A stretch of DNA of 35,155 bases from an uncultured Gammaproteobacteria bacterium (GTDB lineage: Bacteria; Patescibacteriota; Patescibacteriia; UBA9934; GWF2-40-263). A program made the translations under genes and the position numbers. The stretch covers positions 1 through 35,155 of the forward strand of contig CAZPPQ010000003.1 of assembly GCA_964588505.1 (NCBI GenBank). The letters are read 5' to 3'. The notes beneath the pieces were generated by a model. It did not search any database. It had not been told where the DNA came from and worked only from the letters and a program-made list of their open reading frames with translations. Every line of letters begins with the position of its first letter. Within the stretch, counting starts at the first letter, position 1. Shown piece by piece: positions 2,154 through 22,523 of the stretch.

Positions 2154-4705
2154 TTATTTTTCAACTGCCATTTTCACTCGCCGATTCTGAATCCATCGTG
2201 CTTGTCGGAGAGAGCGCGGTTTTTCCCATGGATATCCTCATAGTCCTCGGAGGAATTTTTGTTGTTGTCGCGGCTATAGTCCTCGTGCTTCAAATCATCC
2301 GACACAAGCTTCGCGTGAAGCATTCCACATTTGATCGCATCACCTATCTCGTCACACGGCCCAAGTATCGGCACAGCGAGGAATCCCAGCGCGCGCCGGA
2401 AAAAGAGAAGGTGATCGAGGCGATCGGAGCCGCGGAAACTTTTTTTACCGCGATCGGCGGATTAAAGGAGCAGAAAGGATGGAAGGCGTGGCTGTTCGGC
2501 CGCAACGACGAATTCGGTTTTGAGATCGTGGCGCAAGATAAGATGGTGAAGTTTTATGTGACGGTTCCGGCTTCGGCGCGCACATTCATTGAACAACAGC
2601 TTTCGGCCGCCTGGCCGGATGCGTTTATGGAAGAAGTTGAAGACTATAACATCTTTCAGCCGACGAGCGTCATTGTCGGGAGTCATATCAAACTAAAGCG
2701 TCATCATGCGTTTCCAATCAAGACATTTAGAAAGATGGACGCGGATCCGCTTTCGGCCATGACGAATGTTTTGGCAAAGATTCCAGAGAACGAGGGCGCC
2801 GCGTTTCAATTTTTGGCGCGCTCGGCCCCGCCCGTGTGGCGCAAGCGCGGGATCGAGATCGCTCACAATATCCAGCAGGGAATGAAAGTGGATGACGCAA
2901 TGAAAAAAAAGAAGTCCGGCGAGCTTTCAAAGTGGATCGCGGCGATCGGATTTAGCAAGAAATCCGATGAGCAGAAAAAAGAATACAGGCTGTCCCCGCA
3001 GGAAGAAGAGGTCGTGAAAGTGATCGAGGAAAAGGCGAGCAAGGCCGGTATGGATGTGTGTGCGCGGCTGATTGTTTCCGCGTCAAACGCGGCGCAAGCG
3101 CAAACCACGCTTGAAAATATGCTGAACGCGTTTTCGCAATACAGTGTGTTTCAGTATGGCAATATGTTCGTGAAATCTGTCCCTTCTTCCAAAATGGATT
3201 TGGGCCGCCGATTTATTTATCGCCTGTTCGACGAACGCCAGTCGTTTGTGCTGAACACCGAGGAAATGGCGAGCTTGTGGCATCTGCCTTTGCCATGGAC
3301 TGAAACGCCGAACATCCAATGGCTCGGCGCCCGTCGCGCTTCAGCTCCGCCAAATGTTCCAGGTCCGGAAACCGGCGATATTGAGATCGGATACAATTTG
3401 TTTCGCGGAGTGAAGACGCCAGTGTGGATCAAAAAGGACGACCGTCAGCGCCATCTGTACTTGATGGGCAAATCAGGGTCCGGAAAATCTCAAATGATCG
3501 CCAAGCTCGCGATTCAGGACATTAAAAAAGGATACGGCGTGTGCGTCGTGGACCCGCACGGCGATCTTATTGAGCAGATTTTGGGCAACATTCCGCGCGA
3601 GCGCGTGGATGATGTCATTGTGTTTAATCCGTCCGACATCGAACGGCCAATGGGACTTAATATGCTCGAAGCGAGAGAAGAGGGCGTGAAAGATTTTGCC
3701 GTGCAGGAAATGATCTCCATTTTTTACAAGTTGTTTCCGCCGGAGATGATCGGCCCAATGTTCGAGCACGATATGCGCAATGTGATGCTTACTTTGATGG
3801 CAGACCCGGAGAACCCCGGGACAATCGCGGAAATTCCGCGTATGTTCACAGACGAGGCGTTTGCCAAAGAATGGGTCGCAAAGCTTAAGGATCCGGTCGT
3901 TAAATCGTATTGGGAAAATGAGGTCGCGAAAACGAGCGATTTCCACAAGTCCGAAAAGCTCGGGTATCTTGTTTCCAAAGTTGGACGGTTCGTGGAAAAC
4001 GAAATGATGCGCAACATCATCGGCCAGACGCATTCGAGTTTTGATTTTCGCGACATTATGGATAAGCAGAAAGTGTTGCTCGTGAATTTATCAAAGGGCA
4101 AGACCGGCGAGGTGAACGCGAATCTTCTCGGGCTCATCATCGTTTCCAAACTGCAGATGGCCGCGCTTTCCCGCGCCGATATGCCGGAAAGCGAGCGCAA
4201 AGATTTTTATCTGTACATTGACGAGTTTCAGAATTTCATCACGGATTCGATCGCAACCATTCTGTCCGAGGCGCGCAAGTACCGGCTTTGTCTCACGATT
4301 GCGCATCAGTACATCGGCCAGCTCGTAAAGGACAATGACTCCAAGATCAAGGACGCAGTGTTCGGCAATGTCGGCACTATGCTTGTGTCCCGCATCGGGC
4401 CGGAGGATGTGGAGACGCTCGAAAAAGTGTACGCGCCGGACTTCAACGGTAATGATTTGATCAACTCGGACAAGGTGACATGGTACACGAAGATGATTAT
4501 AGACAACGCGCAAGCAAGACCTTTCACTCTGAACTTTGCCATGGTGCCGAGAGGGGACGCGGAATTGGCGGATGCGGTCAAGGAATTGTCTCGGTTGAAG
4601 TACGGACGCGACCGTACGCTGGTCGAGGAAGAAATTTTGGAGCGCACCCAACTTGGATCATCCGGTGGTGAAGCGTTAGGGGAGTTTGGGAAGTCGAGCT
4701 TTTAG
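2150..4705 (+). CDS. Membrane-anchored VirD4/TraD/TrwB-like (HerA-FtsK clan) ATPase
   Basis: N-terminal TM helix, Walker A GKSGSGKS, VVDPHGD, Walker B LYIDEFQ, EARKY, AHQ; the true start may be the Met at 2228. Confidence 0.88.
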   Translation: MIIFQLPFSLADSESIVLVGESAVFPMDILIVLGGIFVVVAAIVLVLQIIRHKLRVKHSTFDRITYLVTRPKYRHSEESQRAPEKEKVIEAIGAAETFFTAIGGLKEQKGWKAWLFGRNDEFGFEIVAQDKMVKFYVTVPASARTFIEQQLSAAWPDAFMEEVEDYNIFQPTSVIVGSHIKLKRHHAFPIKTFRKMDADPLSAMTNVLAKIPENEGAAFQFLARSAPPVWRKRGIEIAHNIQQGMKVDDAMKKKKSGELSKWIAAIGFSKKSDEQKKEYRLSPQEEEVVKVIEEKASKAGMDVCARLIVSASNAAQAQTTLENMLNAFSQYSVFQYGNMFVKSVPSSKMDLGRRFIYRLFDERQSFVLNTEEMASLWHLPLPWTETPNIQWLGARRASAPPNVPGPETGDIEIGYNLFRGVKTPVWIKKDDRQRHLYLMGKSGSGKSQMIAKLAIQDIKKGYGVCVVDPHGDLIEQILGNIPRERVDDVIVFNPSDIERPMGLNMLEAREEGVKDFAVQEMISIFYKLFPPEMIGPMFEHDMRNVMLTLMADPENPGTIAEIPRMFTDEAFAKEWVAKLKDPVVKSYWENEVAKTSDFHKSEKLGYLVSKVGRFVENEMMRNIIGQTHSSFDFRDIMDKQKVLLVNLSKGKTGEVNANLLGLIIVSKLQMAALSRADMPESERKDFYLYIDEFQNFITDSIATILSEARKYRLCLTIAHQYIGQLVKDNDSKIKDAVFGNVGTMLVSRIGPEDVETLEKVYAPDFNGNDLINSDKVTWYTKMIIDNAQARPFTLNFAMVPRGDAELADAVKELSRLKYGRDRTLVEEEILERTQLGSSGGEALGEFGKSSF

Positions 4706-4824
4706 CCGTTCCTTTCAGACTGCTTGATGCGGATCCATTGATTTTTTTCGCAACCATGGTATCATTGTTCGGCTGGTAAACCTGTCGGGCGCGTTCTTTT
4801 CATCCCGAAAGAAAGGAGAAAGTC

Positions 4825-6060
4825 GTGGAGAATCGTCTTCCAGACATTCCGGATCCTTTGCATCCGATTATTGTCTCCAAGACTCTGACCGTCGCGGACG
4901 GGGAGTCTGGTATTACGATTAAGGACGATCGATACGAAGTTCTGATTTCGCAAGTTTTATTGGTGGCAGGCGCTGATGTGTCGCTTACGTGCGTCTTCAA
5001 TCGCGGTTCCGTTCTTGTCCGAAATTTGGAGCTTGGCAGAAAGTTGAAATCCAAGAATCATGGTGTTGATCCGAAGAGTGTCTTCGTCGTGTACGAACAC
5101 ATCTATAGCGCCATTCGCGGACTTCGCGCCATTCCCGGACGACATGATGTTGAAGTCCGGCGGATTACCGAGTGGCAGAGGACGCTTCGGTGGATGTTGC
5201 AAACATCAGGGCAACTCAAAGATGCGTCTGCGAGCGCGGTGAAGGCGTACCAAGAGGTCGGGCAAAAAACCGCGGCAGATGAGGCGATGGTGCGCAATCC
5301 GGCCAAAGTCAAGGCTCTCGAACGTATGCGAAAAGCGACGAGCGTGACAGACTCGCGCGGACGCAAAAATCCGGGTCGTATCCCGCCGCTTCTCTGGAGC
5401 TCGAGCGATTTGCTTGCCAGACGTCAGAGCGCCGCGCGGGGTATTTCGCACAGGATGGACGGAAGGATTTACGTCCTCGTGTGCTATCTCGATCGGCTTT
5501 TGCGGATCCGCGACCAGTATGAAACCATGGTCGGAAATCTGCTCGGCTCCGGCATTTTGCGCGGCAAGTGCACGGTCAGGAACGCACTGGAGGCAATGAT
5601 TGATCGGCTTCGGAGATCCGCGAGAGAACTCGCTGACGTGCACGTTCAGCCGTTTGGCGGAAATTTCCTTAACATCGCGGGTTGCTTAAAAAATGCCGCC
5701 GACTGTTTGGAGTTAGGGCAGTTAAGCGATACGCGCCGCCATCTCGAAACAGTGCAGTCCAAACTTTATCTTATGGATGCGCGGCGCGAGCTAGAGGAGG
5801 TCCGTTCGACGCTTGCATCCTATTTTGATTCCGGCGTTCATCCGTCGTCTGAAGCGCGTCGCGCGCTTGAGATGAAGATATCAGCTCTGAAAAAGTGGCT
5901 TCGTCATATTTGCGATACGCGCTCTTTTGCCACAGACAGGAATCCGATCGAACAAGTTGATGCGGCATTGGGTCTTTTCGATCCGGGCAAAGAGATACAA
6001 GAGGGATGGCTTTCGGATGTCCGCCTTTGTTTGAAAAGGGCGTGCGCCGAGTGCGATTAG
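4825..6060 (+). CDS. Hypothetical protein (411 aa, predicted helical)
   Basis: Long ORF, GTG start with SD gaaaggag, followed by a terminator. Confidence 0.8.
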   Translation: MENRLPDIPDPLHPIIVSKTLTVADGESGITIKDDRYEVLISQVLLVAGADVSLTCVFNRGSVLVRNLELGRKLKSKNHGVDPKSVFVVYEHIYSAIRGLRAIPGRHDVEVRRITEWQRTLRWMLQTSGQLKDASASAVKAYQEVGQKTAADEAMVRNPAKVKALERMRKATSVTDSRGRKNPGRIPPLLWSSSDLLARRQSAARGISHRMDGRIYVLVCYLDRLLRIRDQYETMVGNLLGSGILRGKCTVRNALEAMIDRLRRSARELADVHVQPFGGNFLNIAGCLKNAADCLELGQLSDTRRHLETVQSKLYLMDARRELEEVRSTLASYFDSGVHPSSEARRALEMKISALKKWLRHICDTRSFATDRNPIEQVDAALGLFDPGKEIQEGWLSDVRLCLKRACAECD

Positions 6061-20559: not shown

Positions 20560-21549
20560 ATGCAATCATTTTTTGTTTCAGCAAAAGCGCTTCTCATCAA
20601 CCCTCGCGGGATGATTTTGGTTTTGCACGAAAAGGAGAAAGATCGTTGGGAGTTTGTCGGCGGCCGGATAGATGACGGCGAGCGGCCTGAAGAGTGTTTG
20701 GCGCGGGAGATTCGCGAGGAGATTGGAGTTTTGATGAATACAAGTCGTGCGGACGTTTTTTACACAGACCGATTTTTGACAAAAAAAGGCGCGTCGGTTT
20801 TGCGATTGTTTTTTTTGATTCCGGATGGTGAGATTCATCCGATTTTGACCGCGGAGCATGACCGATTCGCATGGGTGGATCCGAAACAGCCTTTGTCGGA
20901 AGAGATGAGAAAAGATGTCGGAGATGTGTTCGCGCGGTATTGTGAGCACGAAGGGATTGTCGTTTCCGCCGATGTTCCGCGCGCGCACGAAGGGTTCGGG
21001 CTTATTCAAGTGTTTACCGGAAACGGAAAGGGAAAAACGACTGCCGCGCTCGGGGAGGCGATTCGCGCGCTTGGCGCCGGAAAGCGCGTCGGGATCGTGT
21101 ATTTTGACAAAGGCGGCGACCACTATTCGGAGCGTCGGTTTTTACAGTCTTTGGTCCTGTCAACTACCGGCTGTCAGCTACGAGCTGTGAGTTATGTTGC
21201 TACCGGCCGTGACCGGATGGATTTGTCCACAGGACGATTCGACTTTTCGATTACGGAAGCTGACCGAACAGAAGCCGAACGCGGGTTGCAAGCGGCCCGT
21301 GATTTTTTTGAAGAGGGCCGCGATCTTGTTATTTTGGACGAGGTTAATTCGACCGTGAGTCTTGGAATGATTGATGAACAGGCAGTGCTTGATCTTTTGG
21401 ATGAAAAGCCGGAAAAGATCGAGGTTGTGATGACAGGCCGTGCGGCGCCGGCATCATTTTTGGCGCGCGCGCATCTTGTGACAGATATGCGCCTCCGAAA
21501 GCATTATTTTTATTCTGGCGTTAAGGCAAGGGAAGGGCTTGATTATTAG
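20560..21549 (+). CDS. cobO: Nudix hydrolase - cob(I)alamin adenosyltransferase (CobO/BtuR) fusion
   Basis: Nudix box GGRIDDGERPEECLAREIREEIG; CobO motifs VFTGNGKGKTTAALG, LVILDE, MTGR, REGLDY. Confidence 0.9.
   Translation: MQSFFVSAKALLINPRGMILVLHEKEKDRWEFVGGRIDDGERPEECLAREIREEIGVLMNTSRADVFYTDRFLTKKGASVLRLFFLIPDGEIHPILTAEHDRFAWVDPKQPLSEEMRKDVGDVFARYCEHEGIVVSADVPRAHEGFGLIQVFTGNGKGKTTAALGEAIRALGAGKRVGIVYFDKGGDHYSERRFLQSLVLSTTGCQLRAVSYVATGRDRMDLSTGRFDFSITEADRTEAERGLQAARDFFEEGRDLVILDEVNSTVSLGMIDEQAVLDLLDEKPEKIEVVMTGRAAPASFLARAHLVTDMRLRKHYFYSGVKAREGLDY
21157..21191. repeat. Five tandem CT-NNN-AG-type heptamers inside cobO
   Basis: ctgtcaa ctaccgg ctgtcag ctacgag ctgtgag. Confidence 0.6.
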
Positions 21550-21585
21550 AAAAACATTTCCAATGAAAATTTGAAATGTCTTGAT

Positions 21586-21671
21586 TGGTCGGGCTGGCGG
21601 GATTTGCCAGCCTTTGCGTAAGTCTTCGGCTGGTCCGCCGAAGCTTTAGCGAAGGCGGAAACCCGCGGCCT
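21586..21671 (-). pseudogene. 3' fragment of tRNA-Pro interrupted in the T-loop by a 53-nt paired REP element
   Basis: 21586-21606 and 21660-21671 are identical to the intact tRNA; the insert 21607-21659 is two inverted ccttcgctaaagcttcgg-type hairpins. Confidence 0.85.
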
Positions 21672-21681
21672 TATGACAATA

Positions 21682-21758
21682 TGGTCGGGCTGGCGGGATT
21701 TGAACCCGCGGCCTCTTGGTCCCGAACCAAGCGCGCTAGCCAGCTGCGCCACAGCCCG
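21682..21758 (-). tRNA. tRNA-Pro (anticodon CGG), CCA encoded
   Basis: CGGGCTGTGGCGCAGCTGGCTAGCGCGCTTGG-TT-CGG-GA-CCAAGAGGCCGCGGGTTCAAATCCCGCCAGCCCGACCA forms a cloverleaf. Confidence 0.97.
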
Positions 21759-21869
21759 ACCTTATTGTCATAAATGGGGCTCGTCGGTTTGGCTTTGCCA
21801 GACATCGCCGAGCCCGTCTCGACGGCTTAGAGTCAAGCAGTTGGCTCTTCGCTCGGTCTCGACTCCCTC

Positions 21870-21902
21870 ACCAAGCGCACTAGCCAGCTGCGCCACAGCC
21901 CG
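21870..21902 (-). pseudogene. 5' fragment of tRNA-Pro (33 nt)
   Basis: 32/33 identical to 21726-21758; breaks off in the anticodon loop. Confidence 0.85.
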
Positions 21903-21914
21903 ATGATAGCGAAT

Positions 21915-21944
21915 ACTATAAAGGAGATTCCATCGCAGAGTCAA
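21915..21944 (-). promoter_or_regulatory. Putative promoter for the tRNA-Pro locus
   Basis: TTGACT-N18-TATAGT just upstream of the outer 5' tRNA fragment. Confidence 0.5.
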
Positions 21945-21992
21945 GGTTGTTTTCTTTCTCCGGATGATTCTTTATAATATCGGAATCTTTCT

Positions 21993-22523
21993 ATGTTTTT
22001 ATATCTGGTTTATTTAATCGTATTTTTTTTGCTCGCGTCGCTTGCGTATGCCGCCTCGCGCGGCGCGCCGTGGGTGCCGACATGGAAGCGCGACATCGCG
22101 CGGCTTTTGCCGCTTTTGAATTTGAAGCCCGGGCAAAAGATGTATGAGCTCGGATGCGGGGACGGGCGCGTGTGTCTTGCGGCCGCAAAAGGGAACGGCG
22201 CGGAAATTGTTGGTGTCGAGCTTTCGTTTTTGCAATGGGCGATTGCCGAGCTTACGAGACGCCTAAAAGGAATTCGGAACGCGAGATTTGTCTGGGGCGA
22301 TATTTTCAAGCAGGATTTATCGGACGCGGATGTTGTGTACATTTTTTTGATGCCAAAGTTTTATGAAAAATTACGACCGAAATTTCAGAAAGAATTGCGG
22401 CCCGGCGCGCGGGTCGTAAGTTATGTATGGCCGATCGTCGGATGGAATCCGCTGGTTGTTGATGAAATCGCCGGGGAATCGAAGATTTATGTGTACGAGA
22501 TTCCCCAAGCTTATAGGTGTTAG
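21993..22523 (+). CDS. Membrane-anchored class I SAM-dependent methyltransferase
   Basis: TM helix, APWVPT, ELGCGDGR, GVE, GDIF, ADVVYIFL, LRPGARVVS. Confidence 0.9.
   Translation: MFLYLVYLIVFFLLASLAYAASRGAPWVPTWKRDIARLLPLLNLKPGQKMYELGCGDGRVCLAAAKGNGAEIVGVELSFLQWAIAELTRRLKGIRNARFVWGDIFKQDLSDADVVYIFLMPKFYEKLRPKFQKELRPGARVVSYVWPIVGWNPLVVDEIAGESKIYVYEIPQAYRC

Follow-up and report, generated by a model that had tools for sequence, protein, structure and literature searches.

Why should an intact transfer RNA (tRNA) gene stand inside a broken copy of itself, and which of the two copies serves the cell? The question is raised by one locus in a stretch of 35,155 nucleotides (the window; contig CAZPPQ010000003.1, positions 1–35,155) from a patescibacterial genome that is 97% complete (assembly GCA_964588505.1, hereafter G000; 750 kb in 45 contigs). 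On the minus strand of the window, two parts of a proline tRNA gene, tRNA-Pro(CGG), enclose a short two-hairpin element, which we call E, and a complete tRNA-Pro(CGG) gene seated on a long helix formed by its own flanks (the clamp), an arrangement referred to here as a nest. We consider it probable, at roughly 60%, that mobile inserts have broken a resident gene, of which the outer halves remain, and that the cell uses the inner tRNA, which stands on a leader/trailer helix of 22 bp and would be transcribed from the promoter of the outer gene. The finding is one of gene disruption by a small non-autonomous element, unusual in the target that is chosen and in the layout with a spare copy.

The direct and inverted repeats of the window were located by a repeat search, and tRNA genes were called with ARAGORN and the Rfam tRNA model. 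An initial annotation of this stretch, a model's reading of the letters alone, had already described the nested layout, and re-analysis of the sequence recovered every piece where it had first been placed. The outer copy lacks positions 39–43 and has a G at position 33. Because the anticodon is missing from it, as is the stem strand 3' of the anticodon, it should be unable to decode, and the cell would therefore rely on the inner copy, the only tRNA-Pro(CGG) gene found in G000.

A conserved two-hairpin element

E is a gene-less element of approximately 92–100 nt, with two adjacent hairpin domains and an asymmetric fold. G000 holds three copies, namely one in the nest, one before tRNA-Pro(UGG) on contig 24 and one 97 nt before the transfer-messenger RNA (tmRNA) gene on contig 5 (nhmmer E-values within the genome of ~1e-23, the next match having E = 1.7). 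A two-hairpin fold with many compensatory changes was supported by these three copies and then by 19, from which the covariance model R1 was built. R1 found matches in 17 of 73 genomes of the family (10 of 29 genera), in 25 of the 151 order genomes sampled, at 1–11 copies per genome (the other 126 had no match), and in 27 of 151 genomes sampled from the class, G000 counted. Among the 62 order-level copies, 92.3% of cells were paired versus 70.4% in shuffles, and compensatory changes occurred in 27 of 28 pairs, which 0 of 500 shuffles matched. For the 27 copies from other families of the class, none of which had been used for building R1, the corresponding values were 92.2% and 23 of 28. Both alignments were fitted to R1, which favours structure, and controls with slid partners dropped to 23–42% paired.

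The hairpin-loop motif of E is invariant across the class, and Rfam 15 holds no match to E (cmscan of 21500–22000, E-value up to 10), the tRNA model being the sole match in the window. Judged by its covariation, E is a real structured family. What the initial annotation took for a hairpin-rich spacer of ~95 nt does indeed form hairpins, but is a conserved structured element rather than filler. On the strand of the tRNA, the stems of E contain 47 G–U versus 20 A–C pairs (one odd pair excluded), an excess that hints at a strand-specific single-stranded form of E, either RNA or DNA.

Mobility of the element

Presence and absence of E differ between closely related genomes. G007 carries a ~200-nt E module, bounded by the arms of a long stem, at an intergenic site where the congeners G063 and G033 have none. 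Likewise, G065 and G066 carry E together with an inner tRNA in their CGG gene, at a site that is uninterrupted in the congener G005. Free copies group by genome or by genus, as they would after bursts of copying, in a tree of ~100 columns that was midpoint-rooted, has no support values and was used solely for genome-wise clustering. In that tree, the tRNA-Pro copy of G157 falls with the free copies of the same genome. The anticodon loop before this copy is unchanged, and together the two features suggest that tRNA-Pro was hit separately and recently. From these sequence comparisons, E is mobile DNA resembling miniature inverted-repeat transposable elements (MITEs), as it is short, gene-less, dispersed, and present or absent at the same site in relatives. 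Beside the E module of G007 (locus L009) lies an unrelated second insertion of ~125 nt, with a short CTTG-like repeat at both ends, which is also absent at the same site in G063 and G033.

Free copies lie within stems of 17–21 bp whose sequences differ between subfamilies. The ends of the element vary, with a short A+T-rich repeat on both sides at one site and GG on both sides in D loops, and no consistent ends could be defined. Among candidate enzymes, G000 encodes two tyrosine recombinases (both on other contigs than the nest), two short reverse transcriptases and one transposase-like gene of the Y1 (IS200-like)+HTH type. Homologs of the latter occur in 18 of 25 E-positive versus 66 of 126 E-negative genomes, i.e. 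without a clear link to E. This protein of ~290–300 amino acids (contig 6 of G000, 21132–22052) is present in 84 of the 151 order genomes, in up to 11 copies, some of which contain stop codons.

Target sites

Thirteen of the 62 order-level copies lie directly behind a tRNA-Pro 5' part that ends at position 30–39, and two further copies (L037 and L060) follow shorter tRNA-Pro pieces, giving 15 in total. All three tRNA-Pro isoacceptors (CGG, UGG and GGG) are affected, and an intact tRNA-Pro gene was found within 160 nt of E at every one of these 15 loci. Some tRNA is present in the ~780-nt context of 24 of the 62 copies, a 25th copy standing before the tmRNA gene, and in the context of 18 of the 27 class-level copies. 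By our own reading, many class-level copies sit in the D loop of a broken copy of tRNA-Ala, Phe, Ile, Gln, Ser, Leu or Pro, right after the two conserved G, with an intact tRNA of the same type up- or downstream. The traits shared by the targets, as far as these positions tell, are a single-stranded tRNA loop and a run of G directly before E; on the same evidence, E targets tRNA genes.

Individual loci illustrate how varied the layouts are. At L002 (contig 24 of G000, 1246–1480), positions 1–38 of tRNA-Pro(UGG) are repeated and followed by E and a 10-bp clamp round the intact gene, and no outer 3' part remains. The E copy before the tmRNA gene of G000 (contig 5, ~4069–4940; L004/L029) lies within its own 10-bp inverted repeat. 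A second copy of the final 21 nt of that tmRNA gene, together with 50 nt or more of the flank downstream, stands 172 nt behind the gene, the repeats being separated by a G+C-rich piece of ~130 nt that resembles the sequence before the outer 3' ends of L060 and L058; the tmRNA gene may have been caught in the same kind of layout. At L060 (G045), a single outer tRNA-Pro copy has been entered by two E-like elements, of which that in the D loop is diverged; the other occupies the anticodon loop and bears the inner tRNA at the tip of its second hairpin. The 3' end is repeated there together with its downstream flank. L083 (contig 2 of G029) is a tRNA-Pro(GGG) nest without E, in which a clamped inner tRNA stands at ~33/34 of an outer copy whose D loop and variable region also contain hairpin repeats rich in G+C.

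The tmRNA repeat of G000 resembles an attachment site, and the outer fragments of the nest could similarly be viewed as the attachment-site scars of two independent integrase-driven elements, later almost wholly deleted. Indeed, tRNA and tmRNA genes are classic integration targets of phages and genomic islands, where partial copies (attL/attR) remain and a working copy is preserved (PMC9897764, the available text of which deals with kb-scale integrations only), and two tyrosine recombinases are encoded in G000. However, no integrase or recombinase gene is found among the neighbours of the nest, which are housekeeping genes (ribonucleotide reductase, corrinoid adenosyltransferase/NUDIX, methyltransferase and penicillin-binding protein). 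It was fairly remarked in the initial annotation that integration at tRNAs normally duplicates only one end; here both ends are duplicated round an intact copy, and the gene-less material between them totals ~250 nt. Moreover, the working copy of the nest lies inside the broken one on a helix of its own flanks, and independent scars would leave the complementary arms of that helix unexplained. Finally, the fold of E is conserved, and the folded element also enters D loops, which are not known to be a usual integrase site. We consider such scars a very unlikely origin.

A different view is invited by a distant genome (L116), in which E lies exactly at 37/38 of tRNA-Pro and a double hairpin occupies the same T-loop position as in the window. 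This insertion point, or 38/39 as in L067, is the classical position of tRNA introns, and the anticodon stem is intact on both sides. E, alone or with the inner tRNA, might accordingly be regarded as a spliced intron, the outer gene also giving a working tRNA. 'Transposing introns' are known from the Thermoproteales. Archaeal tRNA introns and split tRNA genes resemble the loci described here in that inserts occur in tRNA loops (37/38, D and T), sometimes several per gene, with related inserts in different tRNAs (available text of PMC4090602 and PMC4033280); group I introns are structured RNA elements known in the anticodon loops of bacterial tRNAs (available text of bioRxiv 10.1101/2020.01.27.920355).

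However, G000 is bacterial, and searches of it for the splicing endonuclease (PF01974) and the RtcB ligase (PF01139) gave 0 matches each, whereas control searches matched four archaea and 10 of 14 genomes, respectively. The interrupted copy is also incomplete: besides the defects of the outer copy in the window, none of the 15 outer tRNA-Pro copies is, by our own reading, complete after removal of E, and a separate intact copy, presumably the working one, is always alongside. Given the missing 3' strand of the anticodon stem, a canonical bulge–helix–bulge motif is unlikely in the window. Altogether, a spliced intron is highly improbable. A group I intron was considered in particular and rejected, as no catalytic core was matched at E-values up to 10, a pair of hairpins of ~92 nt is too small, and the flanking exons do not make up a complete tRNA.

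Resident and inner copies

The clearest evidence on this point comes from genus g6. In its genome G005, uninterrupted genes for tRNA-Pro(CGG) and tRNA-Pro(GGG) are neighbours and adjoin a corrinoid adenosyltransferase gene, as near the nest of the window. Aligned by eye, the outer halves of its congener G065 equal the G005 gene at 31/32 and 30/30 positions (61/62), versus ~56/62 for the inner tRNA of G065, whose differences fall in the acceptor stem, D loop and T stem; G066 equals G005 throughout its outer 5' part. Because the outer halves match G005 better, the outer copy of G065 and G066 is the old gene and the inner copy the later arrival. In the window, outer and inner sequences agree at 32/33 and 33/33 positions, so that the resident copy is not directly distinguishable there.

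Of the two explanations put forward in the initial annotation, the repair of a tRNA damaged by a repetitive extragenic palindromic (REP) element, by means of an inverted-repeat-bounded cassette, comes closest to these results, in that a damaged gene appears to have been functionally replaced; the uninterrupted gene of G005, at the site where two congeners carry the insert, and the closeness of the G065 outer halves to it both speak for this part. The damaging agent, however, is not a generic REP but the specific, covarying E, which recurs in tRNA loops across the class.

A clamp of 10–18 contiguous leader/trailer pairs is present at six of the 15 tRNA-Pro loci, its sequences being all different. 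These six are the five nested loci (the window, L013, L033, L036 and L039) and L002, and the remaining nine have six pairs at most. Within G000, clamps of 12 and 10 pairs set the two E-linked tRNA-Pro genes apart from all 25 remaining tRNAs and the tmRNA, which have no more than six pairs. On this distribution, the clamp goes with nesting. The initial annotation had proposed a check of other tRNA loci: clamps and nests recur at tRNA-Pro loci of relatives, and within G000 no tRNA other than the two E-linked ones has partial copies within 600 nt.

The perfect 11-bp inverted repeat first noticed round the inner tRNA is present, but that length falls short: the arms extend via GGT/ACC into the acceptor stem and reach 22 nt at 95% complementarity (21671–21692 and 21752–21773), which places the inner tRNA on a helix of ~22 bp. 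We read the clamp as a means of keeping the folding of the inner tRNA separate from that of outer halves with the same sequence; it is perhaps also a site for RNase III, or it could instead be a trace of the insertion of the module. RNase III and the RNA of RNase P are both encoded in G000. The match to the latter (contig 23, 3673–4185) spans 513 nt for a model of 367 positions and, at 85.6 bits, does not reach the gathering score of 100; this RNA probably carries insertions of its own.

The locus in the window

The features of the nest are listed in table 1. Three direct repeats relate the outer parts to the inner tRNA: 21864–21903 is a copy of 21720–21759 (40 nt, 93%), 21660–21671 of 21703–21714 (12 nt, 100%) and 21586–21606 of 21682–21702 (21 nt, 100%). 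The seven bases behind outer position 32 look like a degenerate anticodon loop; because they are also found before free-standing E copies, they belong to E or to its target. The promoter initially suggested upstream of the outer 5' half was confirmed as a promoter-like site, the only strong one on the minus strand upstream of the nest (four such sites were seen in the region versus 0.6 expected from shuffles). A terminator scan did not flag the A+T-rich hairpin behind the outer CCA, which has too few G–C pairs.

Table 1. Components of the nested tRNA-Pro(CGG) locus, in the order of the minus strand (window coordinates).
Feature	Position	Strand	Evidence
Promoter-like site TTGACT-18-TATAGT	21915–21944	−	10/12 matches; ends 12 nt before outer 5' part
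Outer 5' part, tRNA-Pro positions 1–33 (acceptor strand, D arm, 5' anticodon-stem strand)	21870–21902	−	32/33 bases equal to inner tRNA
Element E, two hairpins (core ~21775–21866), in place of outer anticodon loop and 3' stem strand	21772–21871	−	Model R1, 95.2 bits
Clamp leader arm, 11 nt	21763–21773	−	Inverted repeat; 12 contiguous leader/trailer pairs
Intact inner tRNA-Pro(CGG), CCA encoded	21682–21758	−	ARAGORN; Rfam tRNA model, 69 bits
Clamp trailer arm, 11 nt, beginning right behind inner CCA	21671–21681	−	Inverted repeat
Outer 3' part, piece 1 (variable loop, 5' T-stem strand, first two T-loop bases)	21660–21670	−	12-nt repeat, 100% equal to inner tRNA
Double-hairpin insert, 53 nt, in outer T loop	21607–21659	−	Sequence and fold
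Outer 3' part, piece 2 (remaining T loop, 3' T stem, 3' acceptor strand, ACCA)	21586–21606	−	21 nt, 100% equal to inner tRNA
Possible terminator: A+T-rich hairpin then T run, right behind outer CCA	21551–21582	−	14-nt arms, 86%; own reading

A stretch of 322 nt folds much better than its shuffles (z = −8.09), and in the minimum-energy fold the outer acceptor strands pair with each other and the inner cloverleaf stands on its long stem. The 53-nt insert of the outer T loop has no second copy in G000, and relatives hold only weak look-alikes; by sequence comparison, it is likewise a member of a repeat family linked to tRNA T loops. One look-alike (L096; contig 1 of G034) adjoins the broken 3' end of a tRNA on the opposite strand.

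Repeated tRNA sequence can mislead assemblers, and the arrangement could in principle be an artefact of this kind. None of the Logan contigs listed spans the complete nest, and several contigs of G000 terminate at tRNA genes. Nevertheless, contigs from other public runs match the nest exactly, if only piecewise: X1 equals 21573–21736 (the outer 3' part with its T-loop insert, the trailer arm and the 3' half of the inner tRNA), X3 and X5, which stem from other studies, equal 21720–22200 (from the inner 5' part through the leader arm and E to the outer 5' part and the promoter), and X4 equals 21815–22182. The check by spanning reads initially proposed is thus answered in part: exact contigs cover both junction-bearing halves, but the two main pieces share only 17 nt, within the inner tRNA. 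In addition, the tRNA copies differ by one base. Because relatives assembled independently show similar nests, we accept the layout as real on these sequence matches, the chance of an artefact being negligible. ARAGORN finds only 27 tRNA genes in G000, none of them for Ser, Tyr, Trp or Phe, and five of the tRNAs stand no more than ~260 nt from the end of their contig (contigs 6, 17, 27, 28 and 29). Repeats linked to tRNAs may act as break points of assemblies.

Origin and use of the nest

We propose that a resident tRNA-Pro(CGG) gene was opened at two loops, by E followed by a complete clamped tRNA-Pro(CGG) in the anticodon loop and by the 53-nt double hairpin in the T loop. The E family would move within and between the small genomes of the class, landing in single-stranded tRNA loops after a run of G, i.e. 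in the anticodon loop of tRNA-Pro and in the D loop of others. The promoter of the outer gene would transcribe the whole unit of ~320 nt, in which the 22-bp helix (acceptor stem, GGT/ACC and the 11-nt arms) would keep the inner tRNA folding apart from the outer halves. The inner tRNA would then be released by RNase III, RNase P and 3' trimming, with the outer pieces and E as by-products. The fold of E would be kept as a requirement for spreading, in the form of either single-stranded DNA or RNA.

Several observations weigh against this proposal. The fold of E is kept at apparently orthologous single-copy loci, with two compensatory pair changes between G092 and G093 (by eye), and these changes fit an in-place use of E as well as they fit selection at the level of the element. 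In the window and in its ortholog L013 (G021), the outer halves are nearly the same as the respective inner tRNA, yet the two genomes differ from each other, and repeated gene conversion would therefore be needed for a relic to stay near-identical in both. Every insert was seen at a loop or hairpin tip (anticodon, T or D loop, or the tip of the second hairpin of E), a loop-only pattern that selection on the fold of the whole RNA would also give. L013 has E and the T-loop hairpin at the same places as the window, but its inner tRNA lies inside the T-loop hairpin, a placement that is unexplained by one simple insertion. Nor does a plain relic account readily for the inner tRNA standing at the tip of the second hairpin of E in G065, G066 and G045. 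Finally, no transposase, reverse transcriptase or nuclease was tied to E, the Y1+HTH family being the only one profiled across genomes.

Three routes to the nested and tandem layouts were considered: tandem duplication plus insertion, a single crossover with a small circle, and rolling-circle capture of a neighbouring tRNA. None of them fits all loci.

Part of the above would be expected if the whole unit were a functional composite RNA, i.e. a tRNA-shaped scaffold whose anticodon arm is replaced by E (for protein binding, as a decoy or in regulation, for example) and which also serves as host transcript and processing frame for tRNA-Pro. The other explanation offered in the initial annotation, an anticodon-less tRNA mimic presenting a real tRNA, is of this type. 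Its structural side stands, as the inserts are exclusively in loops and the outer acceptor stem still pairs, at 7/7 positions in the window and in G021, and again at 7/7 in G065 with a sequence unlike that of the inner stem. The strongly conserved fold of E with its invariant loop motif across the class, the compensatory changes between the congeners G092 and G093 at their tRNA-Pro locus (our own reading), the excess of G–U pairs on the strand of the tRNA and the z-score of the full-transcript fold point the same way.

The mimic itself, however, would be incomplete at most loci: by our own reading, the outer 3' part is missing or truncated at nine of the 15 tRNA-Pro loci, and L037 is without the outer 5' end. 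Furthermore, 126 of the 151 order genomes have no E match, close relatives have plain tRNA-Pro genes, many copies of E are free of any tRNA and are gained or lost between congeners, and the nest of G029 has no E. The G–U excess is also expected from a strand-specific single-stranded DNA intermediate. We regard the composite RNA as unlikely. Two bolder ideas, which taken together seem to us quite unlikely, are that E is a new class of gene-less, RNA-like mobile element which would recognise folded tRNA loops (as RNA or single-stranded DNA), enter after the GG run and be copied back with a clamped spare tRNA, or that the nest would be an expression device in which a shell shaped like a tRNA and bearing E governs how tRNA-Pro is folded, processed or supplied.

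Relation to known elements

Bacterial genomes contain MITEs and palindromic repeats such as REP and the Rickettsia palindromic elements. Like these, E is short, gene-less, hairpin-forming, multi-copy and patchily distributed, is present or absent at a given site in congeners, and occurs within genes. In contrast to them, E prefers tRNA loops and has an asymmetric two-domain fold rather than one long palindrome; its insertions into tRNA genes are accompanied by a complete spare of the target, not by a short target duplication, and no transposase is linked to it.

A second comparison is with the intervening sequences of bacterial ribosomal RNA (rRNA), which are removed by RNase III without religation. 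Both are helical inserts at loop tips of a structural RNA gene, and the long leader/trailer helix of the nest is a possible processing site. However, the host of the nest is a tRNA, which is useless in pieces, and the item released would be a complete tRNA and not a discarded insert. A literature search, with most subscription journals and supplements outside its reach, retrieved no description of nested tRNA genes or of E in the candidate phyla radiation (CPR)/Patescibacteria, the closest paper being PMC9897764, which concerns fragments of tRNA genes.

Significance

Genes for tRNAs are among the most conserved and compact of all genes, and in such genomes of ~1 Mb they are mostly single-copy. 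The repeated breakage of tRNA genes by a gene-less element, always with a nested or adjacent working spare, would represent a way of tolerating or exploiting disruption. For annotation, the consequence is that tRNA finders report the inner gene and overlook the shell round it, and the covariance model R1 can be used for mapping E events across the CPR. If E acts at the RNA level, these loci would also bear on the origin of tRNA introns and split tRNAs.

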